Positions 658-63,354 of a stretch of DNA of 64,000 nt are shown in pieces; the stretch's first letter is position 1, and the number at the start of each line of letters is the position of its first letter. The DNA comes from a virus. The stretch lies in IMG/VR virus record IMGVR_UViG_3300031964_000008. The stretch is one strand, 5' to 3'. The notes beneath the pieces are model-generated. The model was not told the DNA's origin. It saw only the letters and a program-made list of their open reading frames with translations, and did not search any database. Made by a program: the position numbers and the translations under genes.

Positions 658-667
658 CTAGTAAATA
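658..667 (+). promoter_or_regulatory. putative late promoter CTAGTAAATA
   Basis: Recurrent intergenic motif resembling the T4 late promoter TATAAATA, just upstream of a gene start. Confidence 0.55.
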
Positions 668-1306: not shown

Positions 1307-1316
1307 CTAGTAAATA
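1307..1316 (+). promoter_or_regulatory. putative late promoter CTAGTAAATA
   Basis: Exact motif copy in the intergenic gap upstream of the 1407 gene. Confidence 0.55.
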
Positions 1317-9012: not shown

Positions 9013-9519
9013 ATGAAAATGAGCAAGCATGAAATATTTGGTATGTCGAATCTGGCCCAACAGCATACAGGATTGCCTCTTGCTGTGATGGTTCGCGCAG
9101 CACCTCAAAATAAGAAAGACCCTAGCGTCAAGATCGCACACTCCACTGACGGCTTAGTCGACAAAGGCCCGAATTTTTCATTGTCTATTAGTCTTGAGCC
9201 TAAAAAATTGATGGACCCACCTGTAGGCATAAAGTTTAAAGCTAGCGACGTTAGAAAAGTTGCGAATTGGGTTGTGTCGAATCGCTCGCTACTCCTGAAA
9301 TATTGGTATGGTATAACCACGGACAGCATTACTGTACAGAATTTGCTTATTTCGAACAAAGACTACGGTGTGCCCTTTGACACTACCTTAGACCTGTTAC
9401 GTACTGCGTGGAACCTATCTTTGACGCCGCAGGCCCGGGCAGCTTTAGCTAAAATAAATATTCAGGCTGTTGAGCTTATCGTTAAACGAAATCGAGCTTT
9501 GTTTCCTGTTCGTAAATAA
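9013..9519 (+). CDS. MxxL..TGLP-family protein (DUF4160-like), tandem paralog 1
   Basis: MSNLAQQHTGLP...KIA...W...NRSLLLKYW; clearly similar to 9539 and 34425. Confidence 0.75.
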   Translation: MKMSKHEIFGMSNLAQQHTGLPLAVMVRAAPQNKKDPSVKIAHSTDGLVDKGPNFSLSISLEPKKLMDPPVGIKFKASDVRKVANWVVSNRSLLLKYWYGITTDSITVQNLLISNKDYGVPFDTTLDLLRTAWNLSLTPQARAALAKINIQAVELIVKRNRALFPVRK

Positions 9520-9538: not shown

Positions 9539-10033
9539 ATGAGCAAACATGAAATAACCGGCATGTCCAGACTATCAAGAAATGATACGGGTCTGCCCTT
9601 GGCTGTTATGATCAGTGACGCACCATCAAACAAAAAGGTACCGCGTATTAAGGTTGCACAAGCTACGACAGATTTCAAAAACAATAGTCTGAACATGTCG
9701 TTGTCCATAGCACCACATCCAGAAGCCTTAACTAAAATCCCAAAAGGTATGTCGCATCAGGACTTAGCATCTGTTGCTGAGTGGGTAAGTACCAACCGGT
9801 CCATGCTTCTAAAATATTGGTATGGTATTGAGACTGAAACACGTAAGGTAGAACAGCATCTGATTGATGGTAAAGACCAAGGCAAAACCTTTGACCAAAT
9901 CATAGGCCGTATGCGTTCTATGTGGGTTTCTCAAGCAACCAAACAAGAAATCAGCACGCAAATGGAAGTCCCAGTAGACGCAGTCGACCTAATTATTGAT
10001 ACTAATTCCAAGCTGTTTCCTGATCGTAAATAA
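9539..10033 (+). CDS. MxxL..TGLP-family protein (DUF4160-like), tandem paralog 2
   Basis: MSKHEITGMSRLSRNDTGLP...NRSMLLKYWYGI...LFPDRK; aligns end to end with 9013 from ATG 9539. Confidence 0.8.
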   Translation: MSKHEITGMSRLSRNDTGLPLAVMISDAPSNKKVPRIKVAQATTDFKNNSLNMSLSIAPHPEALTKIPKGMSHQDLASVAEWVSTNRSMLLKYWYGIETETRKVEQHLIDGKDQGKTFDQIIGRMRSMWVSQATKQEISTQMEVPVDAVDLIIDTNSKLFPDRK

Positions 10034-11387: not shown

Positions 11388-11477
11388 ACCCCCACTTTCA
11401 TAGCTCGTTGATGAAAATTGGTTACGCAACTTCCTGACAACAATTTCTTGATTTTGATATGCTCGTAAATAATGTAC

Positions 11478-13457: not shown

Positions 13458-13467
13458 GTAGTAAATA
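13458..13467 (+). promoter_or_regulatory. putative late promoter GTAGTAAATA
   Basis: Motif copy upstream of 13530. Confidence 0.5.
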
Positions 13468-16200: not shown

Positions 16201-16210
16201 CTAGTAAATA
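16201..16210 (+). promoter_or_regulatory. putative late promoter CTAGTAAATA
   Basis: Exact motif copy in an intergenic gap. Confidence 0.55.
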
Positions 16211-16270: not shown

Positions 16271-16675
16271 TTGCCCCCAACCCAATCCCAAATAAATTCA
16301 AAGTTAAAATTAATCGTGACTCAAATCAGCTTAAGTCTAGCAAAACCAAAAATGGGTGAATCCTGTAATGGTTGCGGTTATTGCTGTTCTGTCGAACCTT
16401 GTATGTTGGCTCAAGAATTCCTGGGCTGTATTACTGGTCCTTGTATAGCTCTGGAGAGAACAGAAACCAAATTTATTTGCGGACTAGTCCGCGACCCTCT
16501 CGGCTATTTATTCAAAGCTGCACATCCAAATGCTGAGGTTTCTGTCCTAGAAGCACCCAGAAGTGCTGTTGGTGACGAACTAGCCAATGAGATTGCAGCT
16601 GCTCTAGGTATTGGTCTTGGCTGTGACTCTGACGATAGTGACCAGGCTGCTGACTGGTTAGCAACCATGTCTTAA
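16271..16675 (+). CDS. Cys-cluster (CxxCxxCC, YkgJ-like) metal-binding protein
   Basis: CNGCGYCCSVEPC...GPC...C; start uncertain. Confidence 0.65.
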   Translation: MPPTQSQINSKLKLIVTQISLSLAKPKMGESCNGCGYCCSVEPCMLAQEFLGCITGPCIALERTETKFICGLVRDPLGYLFKAAHPNAEVSVLEAPRSAVGDELANEIAAALGIGLGCDSDDSDQAADWLATMS

Positions 16676-16698
16676 CTTGTAACCAACTGGAGTTAATC

Positions 16699-17145
16699 AT
16701 GGACTCAATAGTTCTTGACCACTGTTGGGTGTGTCGTTCTAAGTTCGTAGGCTGCGGTGGCTCGGCCAACAGAGAGGAACATCATATAGTCCCCCGTGCA
16801 GCTGGCGGCTCTGACGGGCCCACGGTGTCTCTGTGCGATGGACACCATACTTGCCTACACAAAATCGCGCTGAGCATCAAGTCTAAAAAACCCTATTTTC
16901 AACTTTTGCTAGGTGAGCCGGACGAGGCTAAACAGAAAATATTGTGGTTGGCAACACGTGTTTTTAATGCGTTCGAAGCTGTAAAAAATGATCCAAACAA
17001 ACGAGTCGTTGTTATACTAACGCTTGATCGAAAAAAGCAGCATCAGTTAGAAGTACTAAAGAAAGTGTATCCAAGCTTGCGCAGTAGAGAGGCCTTGATT
17101 AATCTAGCCTTAGACAATTTGTACCGTAGACACTTCTCAGACTAA
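16699..17145 (+). CDS. HNH-like nuclease with possible C-terminal ribbon-helix-helix domain
   Basis: CWVC...EEHHIVPRAAGG...LCDGHH..LH; C-terminal VVVILTLD...SREALINLAL. Confidence 0.7.
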   Translation: MDSIVLDHCWVCRSKFVGCGGSANREEHHIVPRAAGGSDGPTVSLCDGHHTCLHKIALSIKSKKPYFQLLLGEPDEAKQKILWLATRVFNAFEAVKNDPNKRVVVILTLDRKKQHQLEVLKKVYPSLRSREALINLALDNLYRRHFSD

Positions 17146-17175
17146 ATCCACAAAGACAACAACGGAGTACGCAAA

Positions 17176-17550
17176 ATGAGTGCGCAAATGAATGACGGCG
17201 ATGTGGTTCTTATCCATCTCAAGACCGGTGTTGTTCTGCTGACCAAGGCCACATTCGAATCAGAACTAAGCGACGAAGAAAGTCCTGGACTGCGGGTTCA
17301 CAGAGCCTTAGAAGTGGTGCCCACACGTAACCCTCAAACGGGGGCACCTGCACTTACATTAAGCCCTTGGCTAAGTCTAGGTGGGTTTCTACCGACCTTA
17401 GAATCATTGGTTCTACCCGATGACCTTGTATTAGTCATGCTGCCCGCGCCACAAGCCTTGGTCAATGACTACATCAAGGCAACGACCAGTATTCAGGTGG
17501 CCCAGTCCCTGCCCCAGACCCAGCAAAATAAATCCAGTATTATTGTGTAG
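17176..17550 (+). CDS. hypothetical protein (possible Sm-like beta fold)
   Basis: VLIHLKTG start motif, L.PW motif; GGAG SD. Confidence 0.7.
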   Translation: MSAQMNDGDVVLIHLKTGVVLLTKATFESELSDEESPGLRVHRALEVVPTRNPQTGAPALTLSPWLSLGGFLPTLESLVLPDDLVLVMLPAPQALVNDYIKATTSIQVAQSLPQTQQNKSSIIV

Positions 17551-17563
17551 TGTAGGCCACGCG

Positions 17564-17603
17564 TAATGTAGCCCATCTATACTTGGGACTCGGGGCTACA
17601 TTA
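17564..17603. other. perfect 11-bp inverted repeat in an intergenic gap
   Basis: TAATGTAGCCC / GGGCTACATTA with an 18-nt loop. Confidence 0.8.
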
Positions 17604-17699
17604 GTTCACAAGGGATCTAGACCTTTGATTAGGGACTAGGCTACACATTAAGGGACTCATACTAGACAGTGTTTGAGGCCTTAACTAGGATCACAGAGC

Positions 17700-18410
17700 A
17701 TGTTGAAAAAAGACTCGCTGGGTACTGCAAGCGCAAAGTCCTTAAGTGAAGCATTTCGCTGCAACGAGTGTCTGCATTACAAACATCATGCACACTCAAG
17801 TAGAGACAAAGTATGTATCGAGGAGGGAGTGAAGGGCGTGGGTATTGCCCCTCGTTGTTTCACCCCTGACGTCACTCAAGTAGCTAAAAATAGCGATCAG
17901 TTTGTACAGATTGCTTCTCTGTTTCAAAATTTCACTACCAAAGAACGTAAGATATTTCTAGGCTTGCTCAGGGACCAGCGCAAGCGTCAATTCGAGATGG
18001 GAACCAAACTCTATTTCAAGGTGGGTCGCGACTTCGTTTCAAACTATCTGGCTGCTTTCGTCATGGGTTATACCTCGGGTGGTCAACTTATACTCATGGG
18101 TAGTCCTGACAAGCGCACACGTGGCTCATCCTTTGTTTCTTATATCAATCAAAATTCAGAAGGACTTATGACGGCCCAGCAGTGGCGAGTCAAGCGCACT
18201 GAACTGCAACTAGCCAACAAGATTCATGATCCCAATAATAAAGTGATTGTACGAAACTCTATTATCGATGCGTATGAACCGCCGACTATCGATACGTTTC
18301 CCCAAATGTTTGATACTAAAGATAAGTCCAAGACTAGCTCTAAGTCCAGGTCCCGGCGAAGTCGCGTTGCCGATGTTGTGGATCAATTGAGTTTCAATAT
18401 CACACGTTGA
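17700..18410 (+). CDS. hypothetical protein with N-terminal Cys motif
   Basis: CNEC...C...C pattern; 236-aa ORF. Confidence 0.75.
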   Translation: MLKKDSLGTASAKSLSEAFRCNECLHYKHHAHSSRDKVCIEEGVKGVGIAPRCFTPDVTQVAKNSDQFVQIASLFQNFTTKERKIFLGLLRDQRKRQFEMGTKLYFKVGRDFVSNYLAAFVMGYTSGGQLILMGSPDKRTRGSSFVSYINQNSEGLMTAQQWRVKRTELQLANKIHDPNNKVIVRNSIIDAYEPPTIDTFPQMFDTKDKSKTSSKSRSRRSRVADVVDQLSFNITR

Positions 18411-18451
18411 ATTGTACTTATACGTATTCAAGACTCGTCGGGGGACTTAAC

Positions 18452-19402
18452 ATGTTGCAAAATAAATTGGGGCTATCCAGTCATGAGATGGCATATGTTG
18501 GCGGTGCTTTATTTGCTTATCTGTTTCACAGACCGGATATTGATCAACGAACACTAGTCAAACTAGTAGGTGACCCTGAGAAGGCCGAACGTGTACTCTC
18601 TATGGTGCGAACAGACGGAGAGGTGTTAAAGAACTGCAAGCTGTATGCTTGGGCCTTCTACAAATCTAGGTTCGGTTCACCTAAGCCAAAGGCCTCTGAC
18701 TTTGGAGTCACTTTAAAAGATGCTAAGTTTCTATCTAGGTTGAATCTGAAACACTTGCCTTTGACTTATCCTGCATACTCGGTGGAGGACTTCGATACCT
18801 TAGTCTCGGACACGATTACTGGTCAGTCCTTGTCCTCGTACATCGGAAAGTTTATCAGCAAGAAGATGACTTTTCTGATCAAGAGTTATGGTGTACGCAG
18901 GGATGATCTGCAAGCCGACATGGAGACAGCAGCAATAAAGGCGTTGTATATGTCGTACCCACGTTTTGAATCGTTGCTGCACTTTGAGAACACGGCAAAA
19001 TCAGCGATTCACAACACAGGACAGACCTTAATTACTTATCACACGAGTCCCGGACGACAACGCTTGTACGTCAACCACGAGGGTATGACCGAGAGCTATC
19101 ATGTACAGGTGGATGAAGTACTGTCTTTGGAGGCCCCTAGCACCTATTTAGCGCATGCTAAGGAGCATCTGGAGGCCCTAGTAAATATATCGCACAGGGT
19201 TCGTGAGGACGCGCAAGAATTTTTGTTGTGTTGTGCCGGACACTTCCATGAAGGATTTTCTGAATTCTTGGGATCCGACAATTCGGTATTAGTTGATAAT
19301 GTAGCATTCAGCAGGTACCAGAAGAAGGCTCAAACTTACTTCGGGTACACGGATAATCAGGTTCAAAAACTATTCACAAGGTTGCAACAACACATAAGAT
19401 AA
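18452..19402 (+). CDS. putative phage sigma70-like transcription factor
   Basis: Region 2-like DDLQADMETAAIKAL...F..TAKSAIHN; region 3.2-like VLSLEAP; region 4-like EHLEAL...AQEFLL and YFGYTDNQVQKLFTRL. GGGGGA SD before ATG 18452. Confidence 0.5.
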   Translation: MLQNKLGLSSHEMAYVGGALFAYLFHRPDIDQRTLVKLVGDPEKAERVLSMVRTDGEVLKNCKLYAWAFYKSRFGSPKPKASDFGVTLKDAKFLSRLNLKHLPLTYPAYSVEDFDTLVSDTITGQSLSSYIGKFISKKMTFLIKSYGVRRDDLQADMETAAIKALYMSYPRFESLLHFENTAKSAIHNTGQTLITYHTSPGRQRLYVNHEGMTESYHVQVDEVLSLEAPSTYLAHAKEHLEALVNISHRVREDAQEFLLCCAGHFHEGFSEFLGSDNSVLVDNVAFSRYQKKAQTYFGYTDNQVQKLFTRLQQHIR

Positions 19403-22884: not shown

Positions 22885-23136
22885 ATGCCGCCATCAGGAG
22901 GGGATGGACTTTGTGACTTACCTAATACCGAGGGTGCTCGTAAATACCCGGTACTGTTCACAACAACGACTAGAGGCTTCACGAACGCAGCCAAAAGCCT
23001 CTCGGCCACGTCCTACGTTTACGAATTCGAAACTAAGATTTCAGCTATTCGTGCGTTCAAGCGGACAAGCAAATGTTGGGTAGCATCGCACATACAAGTT
23101 TACGCATCCATGCTATTTGATCCAGATGACGAATAA
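22885..23136 (+). CDS. hypothetical protein
   Basis: GAGGA SD. Confidence 0.55.
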   Translation: MPPSGGDGLCDLPNTEGARKYPVLFTTTTRGFTNAAKSLSATSYVYEFETKISAIRAFKRTSKCWVASHIQVYASMLFDPDDE

Positions 23137-25604: not shown

Positions 25605-25633
25605 TTGGCACCAACCCTAATTTAGTATATACT
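25605..25633 (+). promoter_or_regulatory. early promoter cassette TTGGCACCA..TATACT
   Basis: TTGGCA-N17-TATACT; one of six copies. Confidence 0.75.
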
Positions 25634-44056: not shown

Positions 44057-44066
44057 GTAGTAAATA
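44057..44066 (+). promoter_or_regulatory. putative late promoter GTAGTAAATA
   Basis: Motif copy directly followed by a 12-bp hairpin. Confidence 0.5.
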
Positions 44067-48928: not shown

Positions 48929-48938
48929 CTAGTAAATA
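48929..48938 (+). promoter_or_regulatory. putative late promoter CTAGTAAATA
   Basis: Exact motif 22 nt before the ACP start. Confidence 0.6.
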
Positions 48939-50222: not shown

Positions 50223-50276
50223 ATCTCGGGTTCGCAATTTTAGAATAACTAGTTTGGTTGCGCGCTCCCCTGTATT

Positions 50277-52485: not shown

Positions 52486-53061
52486 ATGATAAAAGCAGCG
52501 TCACGACTTATTGCTATAGAGGCGTCTAAGGATAAAGAGAATTGGGGACCCGGCATCAGAGGATATCACCAAGCAGTCGGAGCCTTAGTACTGGCCCTAG
52601 ACACCGGTAACTTTAGTTTCCAGCTACGTGGTCCTCATTCTGATACACCGAATTGCTACGGAACGTGGGGTGGCTCCGTTGACGGCGCAGAAGACTTGGT
52701 CAATGCCCTACGCCGGGAACTCAGAGAAGAGACCGGCTATAACGGTGAGTGGTCTGTAATGCCGCTCAAGGTATCCAGAAATGGAAAAGGCTTTGAGTAC
52801 CACACTTATTTTGTTACTGTCCCCAAGCAGTTCGTAGTCAACCCAGAATCAGAATTCAGGTCAGAATCGACGGCTGCTATTTGGACAGCTTTCAATCAAT
52901 GGCCTCAGCCAATGCATCCAGGACTTAAAGCGGTACTGGATGATCCACATGTGCAATTCGTGTTGGAGCAAGCCTTGAAACGTAGAGCACAGAATTTAAG
53001 CACGGGTGTCAAAGTCAATGCAGCATCCAGATTGGTTAACTCCGAACTTTCGATCCGCTAG
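52486..53061 (+). CDS. Nudix hydrolase flanked by AASRL motifs at both ends
   Basis: Full Nudix box GSVDGAEDLVNALRRELREETGY. Confidence 0.92.
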   Translation: MIKAASRLIAIEASKDKENWGPGIRGYHQAVGALVLALDTGNFSFQLRGPHSDTPNCYGTWGGSVDGAEDLVNALRRELREETGYNGEWSVMPLKVSRNGKGFEYHTYFVTVPKQFVVNPESEFRSESTAAIWTAFNQWPQPMHPGLKAVLDDPHVQFVLEQALKRRAQNLSTGVKVNAASRLVNSELSIR

Positions 53062-53067
53062 TAAATA
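53058..53067 (+). promoter_or_regulatory. putative late promoter CTAGTAAATA
   Basis: Exact motif overlapping the Nudix stop. Confidence 0.55.
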
Positions 53068-54340: not shown

Positions 54341-54421
54341 ATTATTAAACCCTCAAATTTAATAGTAACTGGGAGTGAGAGCCAAATCCCACACCAACTA
54401 AAGTTTGAGTGAGGTGATAAA

Positions 54422-55657
54422 TTGCCAATTCGTGAATCAAATAACAACAGGCTACTTCCGGCCAACGCTAGGGCTGCTGATGTTGCTGAACGTATGGTTG
54501 AACACATCATACCTATGCAACAGCGCAGATACTACGATGCTTTTCGTCCGCAGGGCATAACTTGTGTGCACTTCAACAGATTGACGTCCGGTCGTAAATG
54601 CAATTGCCAAGCTAGTGCTAAACAATTAGGTGGAATCCTAGATGAACAGGGTAAGGCCAGCACCGGCACAATCAATAGTCTGATCACGGGCCAAACTCCG
54701 TTATCGTTCAATGTGACGCCCTATAACTTCAATCAGCAAAGGGTAACAGGTTATAACGGAGAATCCAGTCCTAATGCTCCGCAGAACAAAAATCAGGGTG
54801 TGTTCGATGTTGTGACCCTGGGCGAGGATTTCCCCCTAGCTGATATCACAGACGAAGATTCATTTGGGGACAACGGTCCAGTTTCTCCCTTATCGCTTGA
54901 CGACATGGTAGGCGACTTTGATGCCTCAACTATGGGCTTTTCCGATGTAGCGTGCCCCATCTGTTTTGGATCCGGCTTCATTGGCGGATTTGCACCCTAC
55001 CACGCGCATCGTCAGGTGTTTACTGTGCCTGATGTCCAGCTCCCATTAACTGGTGAAATTAATCTGGAGGATAAACCGTGGACGGCCTCAACAGAGACCG
55101 GTTTCAATGTCTTAGTTACGCTGCCCAGAGGGGCTATTGGGGTTGACGTGTTCCGAGTCTGGGACTCAGCAATTCCGGTCCCCGCTAAATTCTCTATTGA
55201 CGGAAATCCGCTGACTGGCATCACGACCTTACTGTCTTATTGCGATGGAAAGCCACATCTAGTTACTGCTACGTTTAACGGACGGTTCACCCATCTAGAA
55301 CTTCAATTCAACTTGACGACAGAGAGCGTGTATTTCGAGTTCCCAAAACGTCCGACTAGCTCTAATACTGCACTGCTGGAACAGATGGAACCGTTCCAAA
55401 TTATACTGAGTCCTAACCTACCCAATATATCGAGCATGGACGTGATCGTTGAATCACAGCTAGGTAAAGTTCTAGTGGTCCAAAACGTCAATCCTTGGCG
55501 TTCCAGATTGCAGAATGTTTTGGGTTGGGAGGTTCAAGTCCGTGTAATTCAGCCTCAAGAATTATTTCGTATCTTGCCCCACAGAGGAAGAGTTGCGACC
55601 AAGGACCGAACTACGTCAATGACCAGAGATAACGTGACAGGCCCCCGTCGCACGTAA
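54422..55657 (+). CDS. probable virion head/neck-associated protein with CxC and CxxCxGxG motifs
   Basis: CNC and CPICFGSGFIGGF; GAGGTG SD with TTG start; function inferred from context. Confidence 0.55.
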   Translation: MPIRESNNNRLLPANARAADVAERMVEHIIPMQQRRYYDAFRPQGITCVHFNRLTSGRKCNCQASAKQLGGILDEQGKASTGTINSLITGQTPLSFNVTPYNFNQQRVTGYNGESSPNAPQNKNQGVFDVVTLGEDFPLADITDEDSFGDNGPVSPLSLDDMVGDFDASTMGFSDVACPICFGSGFIGGFAPYHAHRQVFTVPDVQLPLTGEINLEDKPWTASTETGFNVLVTLPRGAIGVDVFRVWDSAIPVPAKFSIDGNPLTGITTLLSYCDGKPHLVTATFNGRFTHLELQFNLTTESVYFEFPKRPTSSNTALLEQMEPFQIILSPNLPNISSMDVIVESQLGKVLVVQNVNPWRSRLQNVLGWEVQVRVIQPQELFRILPHRGRVATKDRTTSMTRDNVTGPRRT

Positions 55658-55698
55658 TTTAACATCAGACAAGCACAGCCCAGCACATTAGCTTAAGG

Positions 55699-56988
55699 AT
55701 GATCATGGCTACCAATGCAGCCCAGAGATTGAAAGCAAGCACGACTAAAGATAAAACAGGTAACGTTAAAACGTCAAAAAATAAACCAAGAACTCAAGTC
55801 AAGGCAGCTGCTCGTATTTGTGCCTTGGAGCTACCTAAGTTCCGATATATTGACGATGTTGCTCGATTTCTTGACCAGACGGGAAGCACGGTTAAAGAAT
55901 TAAGTCAGCTAAGTGGAGTCCAGCAGCAACAACTAGCAAAATTAAATCAGGCACAAATCCACACTCATCCCTGCCTAGTTAAGGCCAGCGGCTTGAGTCT
56001 AGACGGCGAGACTCAAACTGATCCTGATCATGAGTCCTTGAAGACCTTGGTTCCCAAAATTGAACAGCTGAATACGCAATATGTATTGTCAGAAGACTTG
56101 TACGAGAAATACAGGGCTTTAGAGGCCCTAGAAACGCAGTTGGCTATACAGTTCACGGATAAGCGGGGCGAGCCTTACACGAAGGCCTACGGACTGTTAA
56201 AAGCACTGAAGGACAAGATTGGCTTTCAGTTAAAAAACGTTTTAGAATTCTTGAGCAGCGTGGCCTCACACTACGTACCTAAAGTGTTTCAGAGCTACGT
56301 ATCGACATTAGTCCAAGAGCTTCAAGAGCACGTTATATTCGAGCACAAGGAACAGTTTTTGTACGTCAGTGTCAAAGACGGAGCCCTAATCTTTACGGAT
56401 TACATCTTGCTAAAGAACGTAAAGAATGATGACCTACAGGTAACGCCCCATCTCTACATCAGCCTTCAATGGACTGTGAACCAAGGAATTCAAATTCAGG
56501 TTAATCATGAATTTGACTTACCCAATCTGTTACTAGTTGATGGCGGTTCCGAGGTTAGTTCATTGAACGAAGCCTTAGTGGTGATAGACAAACTTTTGGA
56601 ACAAGAGAACTTCAGTACTAGCCTAGCTGCTATTCCACTGTCTACCAGAATGAAGAATGATCCTTCCAAGTTCAGTGCTTCTATGTTTAACTACTGTGAT
56701 TATATAAAGAAAGTTGACGTTGATGCTAAATGTATATCTTTTAGACTCAAAGCGAATACTACTGTCGAACAGATAGACGAAATTAAGTATCCGCTTTATC
56801 TTGAGGTCAAACGTTTGTTTGCCAATAGTCCGGTCGTAAAACTTAGAGTGAAGATTGGTGCGAAATTCATATCGTTTGAACCTCTAACCTCGGGTATTAA
56901 ATCGGCGGTCATTCCTCATGACGCTGAGGTTTTGGGTTCCAAATTTGGATTCACGGGCCTCCAGATAGCTAAACTATTGCAGTTCTAA
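55699..56988 (+). CDS. hypothetical (probable virion) protein with two AAxR[LI] motifs
   Basis: NAAQRL and KAAARI; AAGGA SD. Confidence 0.7.
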   Translation: MIMATNAAQRLKASTTKDKTGNVKTSKNKPRTQVKAAARICALELPKFRYIDDVARFLDQTGSTVKELSQLSGVQQQQLAKLNQAQIHTHPCLVKASGLSLDGETQTDPDHESLKTLVPKIEQLNTQYVLSEDLYEKYRALEALETQLAIQFTDKRGEPYTKAYGLLKALKDKIGFQLKNVLEFLSSVASHYVPKVFQSYVSTLVQELQEHVIFEHKEQFLYVSVKDGALIFTDYILLKNVKNDDLQVTPHLYISLQWTVNQGIQIQVNHEFDLPNLLLVDGGSEVSSLNEALVVIDKLLEQENFSTSLAAIPLSTRMKNDPSKFSASMFNYCDYIKKVDVDAKCISFRLKANTTVEQIDEIKYPLYLEVKRLFANSPVVKLRVKIGAKFISFEPLTSGIKSAVIPHDAEVLGSKFGFTGLQIAKLLQF

Positions 56989-57008
56989 TTAATCTAATAA
57001 GGCGAGCT

Positions 57009-57779
57009 ATGGAAGGCTTAACTAAAGTTTATGCAGCATCAAGACTGCTGGCCCTCCGTACATTTGAAGGCCCTAATTACGATCATGATGCTGTTATCAA
57101 AGAATGGCTAAGGGTTCAGGCGAAAGGTGAATTACGGATAGTCGAAACAGATAGACCTAATATTTGGCTGACCGTAGCTAGCTTTAATTATAGTTTCTAT
57201 ATTTTTATCCATGACGATTTACTTGATGCTTATCCTCAAGATTCTTTAGTGGGGTTGGTGACTTTTAATAGCATTGGTGCCACACAGTTCAATGGTAAAA
57301 CCATGGAGTTGAAAAGTGCCCTGGGCAACAAGCTATACACGCCTCATGCTGAGATTAATCCCGATCATCAGAAGCAGAAAATAGTATCAAGTATCTATTC
57401 ATGGTTTCTTGAAGCCGGTAATTGTCTGATGACCGGTGACTCACATTCTAGAGCCGCCAACCTGTTGTGGAGGAACCTAGCTTCAGTGTTCCCTACATAT
57501 CTTATTGACCTGATGGGTCTCGAAATATTGTCACCAAAGACTAGAGAAAGAATAGCTAAGTCACATTTGATACGACTTTTGATGCTGGGAACCTCTTTTA
57601 GTTTTGAAGACTTAAAGGACCTCGGTTCTTCAGTTAGTGCCAAACTAGTTGACGAACCTGGGTTCGGTACCACGACAGAGGATTTAAATTCAGAGCCTGA
57701 TTTGTTTGGGGACCACCCTACACGAACAGGTATGGGCGTCAATAATATAATGCTCCCAAGTACACCCGTTCAAGGATAA
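57009..57779 (+). CDS. GNAT-like fold protein with AASRL leader
   Basis: INPDHQKQKIVSSIY and GDSHSRAANLLW patterns. Confidence 0.55.
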   Translation: MEGLTKVYAASRLLALRTFEGPNYDHDAVIKEWLRVQAKGELRIVETDRPNIWLTVASFNYSFYIFIHDDLLDAYPQDSLVGLVTFNSIGATQFNGKTMELKSALGNKLYTPHAEINPDHQKQKIVSSIYSWFLEAGNCLMTGDSHSRAANLLWRNLASVFPTYLIDLMGLEILSPKTRERIAKSHLIRLLMLGTSFSFEDLKDLGSSVSAKLVDEPGFGTTTEDLNSEPDLFGDHPTRTGMGVNNIMLPSTPVQG

Positions 57780-57782
57780 ATC

Positions 57783-59315
57783 ATGGCCGTACCTTATGTT
57801 TATTTTAAGACACCAACAACAGATATAGCCGTTATTGCTGATGTAACCTCAATGTTGATTGGGGCTGAGACAATCACCAGCATCGTTGTAGGTACAGCCA
57901 GTCCCGTCACTAGCACTCCTTTGTCAGCAACAGTCACGACAGGCACTAGCTCGGTAATTGGATTAACGATTACGGGCGGCAATGACGGACTTAGTTATGG
58001 CTTTCAGTTAACAATTACTACTAATGCTCGTGTATTCATCGTCACTGTCGCCACATCAGTTTCACAAGCAGAATTTATTCCTTACACCACTGAAAATCCA
58101 GATGCGTTCCAAGACTTAGTAGACGAAATAGAAGCCGGTAAAGCAGCCGTCGGAACATCCGTATTTGCGTTTCCCCCGCAAATAGACCCTTCCGGTGGTT
58201 TTGTTACCTGGGAATTTCTAGCCTCAGACGGTACTGTTTATGCCGCAGGTAATGCTTTCGACTACACTGTGCAATCAAATGGGTTGGCCAATACTGTAGT
58301 TGCCAAATCTATTATTACGGTGCCCGTTACAGTCCCACCATCATTAGATGGACAAGCCTATCAATTAAGATATACGCTAAGTCTAAGTCAAGAGTATGGA
58401 ACACCACCTGATCCCACAGCAGGGAACCTAGGCCAGAACGTATTTTTTCAATTCGAGAACGTTCGGGTGGTGGGGTTGAACACAGTTCCATTGGGTACCC
58501 AACCATCAGTCGAGCTCCAGGGTGTACCAGCTACTGTTTCAATTGTGTTGGACACGCTATATGATAATGTGACAGTCGAATTATGGGCTGGACCCACTCA
58601 AGTAGTGGCCCCGACCCAGATTCAAGCCTATGAAAGAACTGCTAATGGTTGGTACTTTGCTGGTGTATTAGATACCTCGGGATTAGGCGTATCCCTAGTT
58701 CCCTACCAAATAATTTGGAAATACTGGGCATCAACTAATACGGGAATCATCAATCAGGAAAATGCTGATTTCTTTGTTGTTAATCCGTCGATCATGAGTG
58801 CGGTCAATGACGTTAAAGCCAAGATTAATAAGGCACGGACTACGCTTTATGGAACACCTGATATGTTGTTCCCTGCTTCAACTATTTTAACCTGGCTACG
58901 CCGTGGTGGTGACGCATTCAATATCGCTTATGGACAGTTTACTAATTTCACGTTCACAAATGCACTGGGTGGTATTCGTGAATTTTGGTTACTATGCAGT
59001 GAAGCTGCCGCCTTAGCCAGTGCTTATCTTTCGGAGGCTGAGAAATCCTTTAATTTTCAAGGTGCAGCAATTAGTTTAGACGTAGATAGAACTCAATATT
59101 TAGAGGCTGCTGCAACTGCTATTCAAACCCGATTAGATAACGAATTGAAGCTGATCAAAACCAATCTTATTATCAAGGGAAATACTTCAGGTGATGGATC
59201 GGTCAACGCTGGTCAACTTCAACACGGAGCAATCGGTGCCGTAGGAATTACGATTACGCAGGCCTCAATGTGGGGAGCTTATGCTCCAGGATACTTTGGA
59301 AATCGTGGAATTTAA
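57783..59315 (+). CDS. probable structural (neck/head-tail joining-like) protein
   Basis: T/V/S-rich beta domains; C-terminal FNFQG...LDVDRT segment; context. Confidence 0.55.
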   Translation: MAVPYVYFKTPTTDIAVIADVTSMLIGAETITSIVVGTASPVTSTPLSATVTTGTSSVIGLTITGGNDGLSYGFQLTITTNARVFIVTVATSVSQAEFIPYTTENPDAFQDLVDEIEAGKAAVGTSVFAFPPQIDPSGGFVTWEFLASDGTVYAAGNAFDYTVQSNGLANTVVAKSIITVPVTVPPSLDGQAYQLRYTLSLSQEYGTPPDPTAGNLGQNVFFQFENVRVVGLNTVPLGTQPSVELQGVPATVSIVLDTLYDNVTVELWAGPTQVVAPTQIQAYERTANGWYFAGVLDTSGLGVSLVPYQIIWKYWASTNTGIINQENADFFVVNPSIMSAVNDVKAKINKARTTLYGTPDMLFPASTILTWLRRGGDAFNIAYGQFTNFTFTNALGGIREFWLLCSEAAALASAYLSEAEKSFNFQGAAISLDVDRTQYLEAAATAIQTRLDNELKLIKTNLIIKGNTSGDGSVNAGQLQHGAIGAVGITITQASMWGAYAPGYFGNRGI

Positions 59316-59318
59316 ACT

Positions 59319-59615
59319 ATGAAAACAAATGCACGTCAGCGAATACTGGCCTCAACTACTACGGTTTATGCCGGTGAGGACCTAGAAAAAGAAGGTGGGT
59401 TCAAACTTAAACTGGGCACCAATATTTTCAGATGCAGTTCACCTAAAGATGCTTATGAAAAGGCCGCACGTTTTATTCATAACTTAGAGATCGCAGGTTT
59501 TAGCTACGCAAAGAAGGCATCCGAAGTTGACGGCCTGGACACGTACACCAAAGCCAATCATGAAATCTCTATTGGGGTCCACGGTGGAAACCTGAACTTA
59601 AGTTACTGGCACTAA
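59319..59615 (+). CDS. small protein with ARQRI leader
   Basis: MKTNARQRILAS. Confidence 0.7.
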   Translation: MKTNARQRILASTTTVYAGEDLEKEGGFKLKLGTNIFRCSSPKDAYEKAARFIHNLEIAGFSYAKKASEVDGLDTYTKANHEISIGVHGGNLNLSYWH

Positions 59616-59704
59616 TTTAATAGTAATAGTCTCACAATCACAGTCACAAGCATTCAAAAAATAAACCCATAGTAGATGTAGGTCTAGGCTCACGGAGCTC
59701 ACTC

Positions 59705-60531: not shown

Positions 60532-61020
60532 ATGACTACTGTAAATTACACGAATGCTAAAGCGGCCTTGGTTGCTGCTGGACTACCAACCAGCGCTGGC
60601 TCCAATTGGGAAGGAATTGACCAAGCATCCTACGATAAGTTCGCTGCAGCTGCTACCTACAAAGGTGGTGTTGCATACAGCAAGTATCAAACTAATTACG
60701 GGTTTGCTTATCCATCGATCATGCCTGTATCCGTGTTGGACGCTGTAGAGATCGATGACTATCATGCAACGTTGGCCGGTACTCCATTGACTGGTGCCCA
60801 TGCATCTACACCTGTTACATGGACCCTGACCGAGACCGGAGCTACAGGTACTTCGTATTCTTGGCACCTGGGTGACGGTTCATCCCCGCAGGTTACCACA
60901 GTACCTCACCTGACTTATACCTATAGTGCGGCCGGTACGTTTACAGCTTCGGTGGTCCCGACTGTTGGCGGTAACCAGGTGCCCGCAATTTCCGCTACGG
61001 CTCCGGCTATTCTATCGTAA
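60532..61020 (+). CDS. PKD (Ig-like) domain virion decoration protein
   Basis: YSWHLGDG......H..TY.Y...GTF.AS; GAGG SD. Confidence 0.8.
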   Translation: MTTVNYTNAKAALVAAGLPTSAGSNWEGIDQASYDKFAAAATYKGGVAYSKYQTNYGFAYPSIMPVSVLDAVEIDDYHATLAGTPLTGAHASTPVTWTLTETGATGTSYSWHLGDGSSPQVTTVPHLTYTYSAAGTFTASVVPTVGGNQVPAISATAPAILS

Positions 61021-61033
61021 ATAGGAATTAATT

Positions 61034-62979: not shown

Positions 62980-63354
62980 ATGAATGATGTCACCACTATT
63001 GTGAGTGCGGTTGAAACCGCTGTACGCCTGGCTGTTGACGTGCCCTTTCTTTTGATTGGTTTAGTCCTAGGTGTCTTGGTCTACCGCTATTTGTTGCGTA
63101 CCAATCCAACCCTGCTAGGTCACTTCCTGACCACCATCGACACGGACGTGCAGAAAGTAGCTTTAGACGTTGCATCGGCGGTCAAGAAAGAAGCAGCTAA
63201 GACTGAGACCAGTGCTGCGAGTGCGTCAGCTTCTGGTTCCGGTTCCACAAGTTCCGGCTCTATTGTTTCCTCAACTGTAGTTACGGTGCCTAGCGCCGTG
63301 TCTGAAACAACTATCGTTTCAAGTTCGCCGGATACTACGAGCGTTAGTAAATAA
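62980..63354 (+). CDS. single-TM protein with Ser/Thr-rich tail
   Basis: AAAGGA SD; hydrophobic helix at about aa 20-37. Confidence 0.7.
   Translation: MNDVTTIVSAVETAVRLAVDVPFLLIGLVLGVLVYRYLLRTNPTLLGHFLTTIDTDVQKVALDVASAVKKEAAKTETSAASASASGSGSTSSGSIVSSTVVTVPSAVSETTIVSSSPDTTSVSK

Follow-up and report, generated by a model that had tools for sequence, protein, structure and literature searches.

A candidate divergent sigma-like factor and two promoter-like motif classes in phiRSL1-like jumbo phages

A conserved hypothetical gene

The window considered here, a 64,000-nucleotide stretch of the IMG/VR virus record IMGVR_UViG_3300031964_000008, belongs to a 96.8-kb viral contig (~41% complete) whose kin are Ralstonia phage phiRSL1, the Burkholderia phages BcepSauron, BcepSaruman and BCSR5, and Achromobacter phage Motura. 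Its open reading frames (ORFs) include the P0001 gene (18452..19402, + strand, stop codon included; ORF list and translation), whose 316-residue product is supported as sigma-like by its predicted fold. We read this protein tentatively, at a little less than an even chance, as a very divergent sigma-like factor that gives promoter specificity to the host RNA polymerase, with promoters carrying the motif T[AC]GTAAATA (class A) as its most likely targets. Jumbo phages without an RNA polymerase of their own must reprogram the host enzyme, and the phiRSL1 clade has one annotated sigma factor; the reading proposed here would give a candidate function to a conserved 'hypothetical' gene of this lineage.

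The reading frame is open from 18407 or 18452 through 19402 on the + strand, and ATG 18452 is the likely start because a Shine-Dalgarno-like GGGGGA (18440..18445, + strand, found by sequence inspection) lies 6 nt upstream and the N-termini of homologues read MLxxxLG. P0001 shares 36–45% identity with phiRSL1 ORF011, BcepSauron gp159, a BCSR5 protein and Motura gp323. Homologues carry the label 'hypothetical' in every record, and no function is assigned to the ORF011 family in the phage records, literature and protein sources examined. A near-length search recovered 125 homologues at E ≤ 1e-3 on contigs of up to 254 kb, the wider family comprises 334 representatives at E ≤ 1e-3, and jumbo phages of Pseudomonas putida and Vibrio carry remoter relatives. 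The P0001 gene belongs to the core genes of phiRSL1-like jumbo phages.

Predicted fold of P0001

The AlphaFold2 (AF2) model of P0001 has a predicted local distance difference test (pLDDT) value of 89 overall and above 90 across most of residues 1–200 and 250–310. A basic, helical N-terminal domain (residues 1–108; 18452..18775; isoelectric point (pI) 9.7; pLDDT 91–98) stands ahead of the sigma-like part, as the initial annotation had proposed from the letters of the gene. Many conserved family residues (FAYLF, NCKLYAWA) sit in this domain, whose structural neighbours are weak and winged-helix-like (MarR/DtxR type, template modelling (TM) scores 0.43–0.47). It is followed on the same + strand by a helical domain resembling sigma domain 2 (residues 109–203; 18776..19060; VIA-align), an acidic low-confidence linker (residues 204–233; 19061..19150; pI 4.6; pLDDT 54–75) and a C-terminal helical domain (residues 234–316; 19151..19399) that is weakly sigma-domain-4-like in VIA-align when folded alone (pLDDT 86). 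The segment order read from the sequence is thus matched by the predicted fold, in which a sigma-2-like domain, a linker and a weakly sigma-4-like domain succeed each other as in sigma factors. The segment assigned to sigma region 2 (DDLQADMETAAIKAL...N, residues 151–188) falls inside the sigma-2-like domain. SLEAP (residues 225–229), taken for region 3.2, is present between the two domains but lies in the low-confidence acidic linker, and the region 4 segments LEAL...FL (240–256) and FGYTDNQVQKL (297–307) lie in the C-terminal helical domain, whose match to sigma domain 4 is weak.

VIA-align was run against 48,161 representative chains and the best 50 rows were considered. For residues 109–203, 31 of these 50 were sigma domain 2 or whole sigmas (Z 9.2–5.9), with sigma28 (6pmj_F, Z 9.2), RpoE (5uxx_C, Z 8.3) and FliA (1rp3_A, Z 7.9) among the matches. 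The SigE N-domain (8b3z_A) aligned with P0001 over 79 of 80 residues (Z 8.4, root-mean-square deviation (rmsd) 2.8), T4 gp55 (7d7d_F) aligned with the sigma-2-like domain at Z 7.2 and rmsd 2.1 over 71 residues, and whole extracytoplasmic function (ECF) sigmas covered residues 109–316, with 143–163 residues aligned. The conserved residues H177, N180, K183, N188 and G190 are located in the last helix of the sigma-2-like domain.

Of the top 50 rows of Foldseek against the Protein Data Bank (PDB), nearly all were sigma chains (Thermus sigmaA, sigmaB, sigma32, sigmaE, sigmaH), at E 0.07–1 and TM ~0.2; weak scores of this kind are expected when a model whose several domains are free is set against sigmas in the extended form that they take in the holoenzyme. 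The fold comparison with sigma factors suggested at the outset therefore recovered domain 2, while domain 4 was weak and was missed by Foldseek. In BFVD, P0001 family members come first (including a protein of Erwinia phage Y3) and the weak rows beneath are mostly phage sigma factors, and the structural neighbours in the ESM Atlas include ECF, SigK and sigma-70 clusters. The Erwinia phage vB_EamM_Y3 protein, uncharacterised and 376 residues long (BFVD A0A2H4IBQ1), matches the P0001 model at Foldseek E 2.6e-4 with 12% identity, and the family may extend past the reach of sequence searches.

Several results weigh against a sigma identity. A Pfam search with P0001 at E ≤ 10 gave no match, including to Sigma70_r2 (PF04542), and the families listed for 145 diverse relatives at E ≤ 1 included no sigma model; Sigma70_r4 and r4_2 matches were likewise absent for P0001 and, among the families listed, for these relatives. 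Profile searches of PDB sequences with the P0001 family gave nothing meaningful, and hhalign related the family neither to T4 gp55 (probability 0.2%) nor to the annotated sigma factor of the clade, the ORF224 family considered below (probability <1%). The gp55 families (PHROG 234 and 12791) had no match in the contig or four relatives, a six-frame search of the contig found no Sigma70_r2 match, and the PHROG scan of P0001 gave one match, to phrog_19229 ('unknown function', E 1.6e-5), over residues 130–206 only. From sequence alone, the sigma resemblance of P0001 is no better than chance, and since sequence methods are silent it is the predicted fold that carries it. The Z values of 8–9 are themselves within the chance range for helical bundles, as helical bundles with Z below ~13 can reflect a common arrangement according to the VIA-align tool note. 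For the C-terminal domain alone, sigma region 4 provided four of the seven top VIA-align rows at weak Z values of 4.2–4.6 (Staphylococcus aureus sigmaA domain 4, 4g6d_A, Z 4.6, 59 of 62 residues aligned; sigma28 region 4, Z 4.5; SigA region 4, 6ono_B, Z 4.3; 8dy9_I, Z 4.2), Foldseek with this domain alone found no match, and its pI of 6.6 is not basic. By eye, the family tail G-[YFV]-[ST]-x3-V-x2-L-F-x2-L-R resembles region 4.2.

These grey-zone Z values, the lack of any sequence signal for sigma and the similar scores of non-sigma bundles (NttA, Z 7.6, and PG0816, Z 7.3, in VIA-align) would suit a coincidence of fold, in which P0001 shares a common helical-bundle arrangement and has an unrelated function. 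We consider this quite improbable, as sigma chains dominate the top rows of several searches and recur for the C-terminal domain alone, unlike what a generic bundle would give. Our argument from fold is built on this dominance among the rows and not on Z, because a bundle Z below ~13 may reflect a common arrangement.

A -10-only motif ahead of DNA-metabolism genes

The initial annotation had also pointed to a promoter-like motif, which proved to be over-represented and conserved. The window contains nine copies of TAGTAAATA, every one on the + strand, where 0.47 would be expected, and none of 100 shuffles reached nine. T[AC]GTAAATA occurs 18 times in the 96.8-kb contig, with 14 copies outside ORFs or within the last 12 nt of an ORF; the non-coding share of the contig is only ~9%, and the placement has a P of about 4e-10. 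Motif counts in relatives were compared with those of the same pattern read backwards as a control, giving 31 versus 0 in Motura (all TCGTAAATA, the top over-represented 9-mer there), 17 versus 0 in BcepSauron, 11 versus 1 in BCSR5 and 3 versus 1 in phiRSL1, and the GTAAATA core occurs 21 times in Pseudomonas phage Lauda (control 6). No conserved -35 element was found upstream of class A in the contig or in Motura. Class A is a real, conserved, -10-only promoter-like element.

The genes that follow class A are mostly those of DNA metabolism. In the contig they include the genes for deoxycytidine monophosphate (dCMP) deaminase, 27 nt downstream of TAGTAAATA at 53059..53067, and for a 1552-residue DNA helicase, downstream of the copy at 63345..63353 (both + strand), together with a DNA methyltransferase, a DnaB-like helicase, a DNA polymerase gene and a nicotinamide mononucleotide (NMN) adenylyltransferase-like gene. 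Class A also lies upstream of the genes for single-stranded DNA-binding protein (SSB) and RecA in BcepSauron and Motura, and the virion-gene region of Motura (~105–196 kb) has only two copies. Because DNA-metabolism genes follow it and few copies fall in the virion region of Motura, the genes served by class A do not make it a late promoter in the manner of T4. The T4 analogy drawn initially does not fit in this respect; virion and lysis genes carry a different motif, AATTTnAnn.

Class A also heads gene blocks of the P0001 type. In the window, TAGTAAATA at 16202..16210 (+ strand) precedes the block 16271–19402 that contains the P0001 gene, and corresponding sites stand at 50265 in Motura, at 52748 in BCSR5 and, as CAGTAAATA, before ORF008 in phiRSL1. 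In at least 11 of 20 related viral loci, class A lies 1.4–4.4 kb upstream of the P0001 homologue. The copy that had been noticed inside the P0001 gene (19179..19187, + strand, codons L-V-N-I; CTAGTAAATA at 19178-19187) is present, but the homologous genes in Motura, BcepSauron, BCSR5 and phiRSL1 lack it. About 0.2–0.5 chance copies are expected in the window, and since the internal copy is not conserved in these four homologues it is probably accidental or lineage-specific.

The other TAGTAAATA copies on the + strand lie 26 nt upstream of ORF 13494 (13459..13467) and in intergenic positions (659..667, 1308..1316, 44058..44066 and 48930..48938). The variant TCGTAAATA is found on the same strand 10 nt upstream of an HNH endonuclease gene (61015..61023), immediately 5′ of ORF 11472 (11463..11471), within an ORF (9510..9518), and at 10024..10032 and 22938..22946.

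A second motif class and sigma-70-type promoters

The motif of the virion and lysis genes, AATTTnAnn (class B), occurs in Motura as AATTT[AC]ATA in 14 copies (control 2), most of them 15–50 nt ahead of a ribosome-binding site or start codon, where it precedes the holin gene, two minor-tail genes, a head-module ATPase gene and the gene after the tail sheath. In phiRSL1, AATTTGAYW occurs ten times (control 0) and precedes the holin gene, the same head-module ATPase gene, a tail fibre gene and others. In the window, AATTTAATA(GTAA) is found on the + strand at 54356..54364, upstream of a virion-gene block (54422-59315) that includes a head-tail connector gene (57783-59315), and at 59614..59622, upstream of ORF 59705, the extended element AATTTAATAGTAA spanning 54356-54368 and 59614-59626. 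Class B also stands immediately upstream of the small operon that ends in the ORF224-type sigma gene in Motura (23555), BcepSauron and phiRSL1. Its sequence differs between phages. Class B was identified post hoc from modest counts, which counts against the reading proposed here. The class A and class B motifs are useful for operon annotation in phiRSL1-like genomes.

The window further contains six near-identical, strong sigma-70-type cassettes (TTGGCA-17-TATACT with an A/T-rich upstream tract) between 25.6 and 45.3 kb, at 25605, 32975, 33387, 34786, 44443 and 45287, all of them downstream of the P0001 gene. No early sigma-70-type promoter was found ahead of the P0001 gene in the window, and the 20 related loci show only scattered weak sigma-70-type matches near P0001 homologues; the first source of P0001 is therefore unexplained, which also speaks against the role proposed here. 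Only four sites in the 221 kb of Motura match the sigma-70 consensus at 10 of 12 positions, and since this genome is almost devoid of sigma-70-type promoters, some members of the group might require a P0001-type factor as soon as infection begins.

A second phage sigma factor and the pairing of factors with motifs

The complete relatives encode another sigma of ~320 residues (phiRSL1 ORF224, BcepSauron gp240, Motura gp034), a member of PHROG 17569 that the records label 'RNA polymerase sigma factor'; Pfam weakly matches its residues 180–238 to Sigma70_r2. Its gene is located in a thymidylate synthase/SSB/RecA module (in phiRSL1 at NC_010811.2 159775-160749, minus strand). The C-terminus of the family, conserved and hydrophobic-acidic (..Q[KR]xxLxxF[AV]LE), resembles the T4 gp55 tail SLDFLYE, which binds the sliding clamp, and because of this resemblance the ORF224-type sigma may be a clamp-coupled late sigma; hhalign of the ORF224 family with T4 gp55 found no relation. 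P0001 ends in a helix (..LQQHIR) without a hydrophobic-acidic tail. The two families occur together in seven records (phiRSL1, BcepSauron, BcepSaruman, BCSR5, Motura, Vibrio phage GR11A and Lauda) and also share several large metagenome contigs; the ORF224 family is absent from the 96.8-kb contig, which is 41% complete. We tried the phyletic pattern as a way to separate the two candidate readers of class A and it gave no discrimination, both families co-occurring in the seven phages.

ORF224 is an equal candidate reader of class A, because it is the more canonical sigma and co-occurs with the P0001 family in most relatives checked. We nevertheless slightly favour P0001 as the plausible reader of TAGTAAATA, a pairing that we infer, as we do the binding of RNA polymerase, from the predicted fold, the conservation and the positions of the two motif classes. 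Class A stands at the head of the P0001 block and class B at that of the ORF224 operon and of the late genes, and ORF224, encoded in the replication module and similar to gp55, has the look of a late sigma; these points favour the pairing of P0001 with class A.

The reverse pairing, in which the ORF224-type sigma reads T[AC]GTAAATA and P0001 reads class B or another, unrecognised promoter class, draws on evidence that weighs against our preferred assignment. Class A is similar to TATAAATA, the late promoter of T4, with which it shares TAAATA, and this promoter is read by a gp55-type sigma, which therefore points to ORF224; the lack of a -35 box suits a sigma-2-only reader of the gp55 type, and the ORF224 family combines Sigma70_r2 similarity with a gp55-like tail. 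Mean column identity is 56% in the ORF224 family versus 40% in the P0001 family, so that the better-conserved family is in step with the nearly invariant GTAAATA core and points away from P0001, as class B varies and so does the P0001 family. The 'own promoter' argument is soft, because the ORF224 genes of BcepSauron and phiRSL1 are also downstream of class A sites, as both sigma-like genes then are. The gene of a factor produced during the class A phase for later use would also be expected to lie downstream of class A, as the P0001 gene does. Set against this are the class B sites immediately ahead of the ORF224 operon in three phages, the genes served by class A, which are those of DNA metabolism and not of the virion, and the place of the ORF224 gene in the replication module, as for the late sigmas of T4 and SPO1, which are expressed in the middle phase. 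We regard the reverse pairing as unlikely.

Proposed mechanism and comparison with known systems

In the mechanism that we propose, P0001 would be an ECF-like two-domain sigma with an added basic N-terminal domain, acting as a second phage-made specificity subunit of the host RNA polymerase. The sigma-2-like domain (109–203) would dock on the beta-prime clamp helices, with its polar last helix (H177, N180, K183, N188) reading a -10-type element, the acidic linker could occupy the active-site or RNA-exit path, and the C-terminal domain may rest on the beta flap with no -35 box required. The most likely targets would be the -10-only class A promoters driving DNA-metabolism ('middle') genes, and class A at the head of the P0001 gene block would add positive feedback. 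The ORF224-type sigma, with its gp55-like C-terminal tail, would serve class B of the head, tail and lysis genes. Dependence on the host enzyme is consistent with phiRSL1, which encodes no RNA polymerase and is sensitive to rifampicin (PMC5468394), and jumbo phages of its group are said to depend on sigma factors of their own and a gp33-like protein (PMC7824862); the Matilda preprint, which includes RNA-seq over a time course, mentions one sigma factor (10.64898/2026.10.21.760668). The full scheme, in which phiRSL1-like jumbo phages have two phage sigmas and two -10-only promoter classes, and in which P0001, representing a lineage hidden from sequence profiles, recognises T[AC]GTAAATA with feedback on its own block, is possible, though we hold it doubtful as a whole. 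A hidden second sigma-like protein and two conserved motifs together make a concrete and testable model of a temporal programme.

The neighbourhood of the gene bears on a further alternative. A small DNA topoisomerase gene (17700..18410, + strand; PHROG 17701, E 4e-47) is the usual upstream neighbour of the P0001 gene, adjoining it in the window, phiRSL1 and Lauda and lying one gene further upstream in BcepSauron and Motura, and a functional link between the topoisomerase and the sigma-like protein is possible. P0001 might have a sigma fold and not initiate transcription, serving as a decoy, inhibitor or appropriator of the host RNA polymerase or sigma, or as a DNA-binding regulator acting through its N-terminal domain, perhaps with the topoisomerase. 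The adjacent or nearly adjacent topoisomerase gene, from the window to Lauda, would suit such a role, as would the many conserved residues of the weakly MarR/DtxR-like N-terminal domain, the absence of a near-invariant residue from the helix equivalent to sigma region 2.2, and a C-terminal domain that is not basic. A whole ECF sigma, however, has the same order of sigma-2, acidic linker and sigma-4-like domain, alignments with ECF sigmas extend across the two domains, and matching two promoter classes with two sigma-like proteins is economical; we consider a non-initiating role improbable.

As a specificity factor, P0001 would resemble in architecture the ECF (group 4) sigmas such as Escherichia coli sigmaE and Mycobacterium tuberculosis sigmaH, in which sigma-2 and sigma-4 helical domains are joined by a linker of ~30 residues; its own counterparts are the sigma-2-like and the weakly sigma-4-like domain. 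Unlike these, it has no detectable sequence similarity to Sigma70_r2 or r4, it has a conserved basic N-terminal domain of 108 residues, its sigma-4 match is weak and its candidate promoters have no -35 element. Autoregulated ECF sigma genes lie downstream of their cognate promoter, and the P0001 gene likewise lies downstream of its candidate one. T4 gp55, which works with gp33 and the gp45 clamp, is also phage-encoded, P0001 being predicted as a very divergent sigma for the host RNA polymerase, and class A and TATAAATA are both -10-only; gp55, however, is a 185-residue protein that lacks sigma-4 and carries a clamp-binding tail, in contrast to the 316 residues, extra domains and helical C-terminus of P0001. 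ORF224 keeps a recognisable region 2, whereas P0001 does not and does not relate to ORF224 by hhalign.

In the cascade of SPO1 (gp28, then gp33/gp34), and with the ECF-like gp36 of phiEco32, successive phage sigmas redirect the host polymerase to distinct promoter classes, and the factor for a later class is produced under the earlier one, as it would be in the scheme proposed here. The SPO1 and phiEco32 sigmas are recognisable by sequence, in contrast to P0001, whose sigma resemblance shows in predicted structure alone. phiKZ gp68 and AR9 gp226 (PMC13282480), like the candidate P0001, are jumbo-phage specificity proteins whose sigma kinship is visible only structurally, if at all; they serve phage-encoded polymerases, whereas phiRSL1-like phages encode none. 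P0001 would be another promoter-specificity factor findable only by structure prediction.

Further observations on the P0001 block and on phiRSL1

The 150-nt gap 5′ of the topoisomerase gene contains an 11-bp perfect inverted repeat without a T-run (TAATGTAGCCC...GGGCTACATTA, 17564-17603) and three GGGACT repeats (17577-17660); as a hairpin, the gap (17550-17700) folds unexceptionally (z -1.3). The same gene block encodes a 148-residue protein (16699-17145) with a Cys/His-rich, HNH-like pattern, whose PHROG matches are weak and to families of unknown function. In phiRSL1, a class A site (NC_010811.2, ~164258-164348) lies ~80 nt inside the annotated 5′ end of the thymidylate synthase gene ORF230, which is ~100 codons longer than its BcepSauron counterpart; the start of ORF230 is probably annotated too far upstream.

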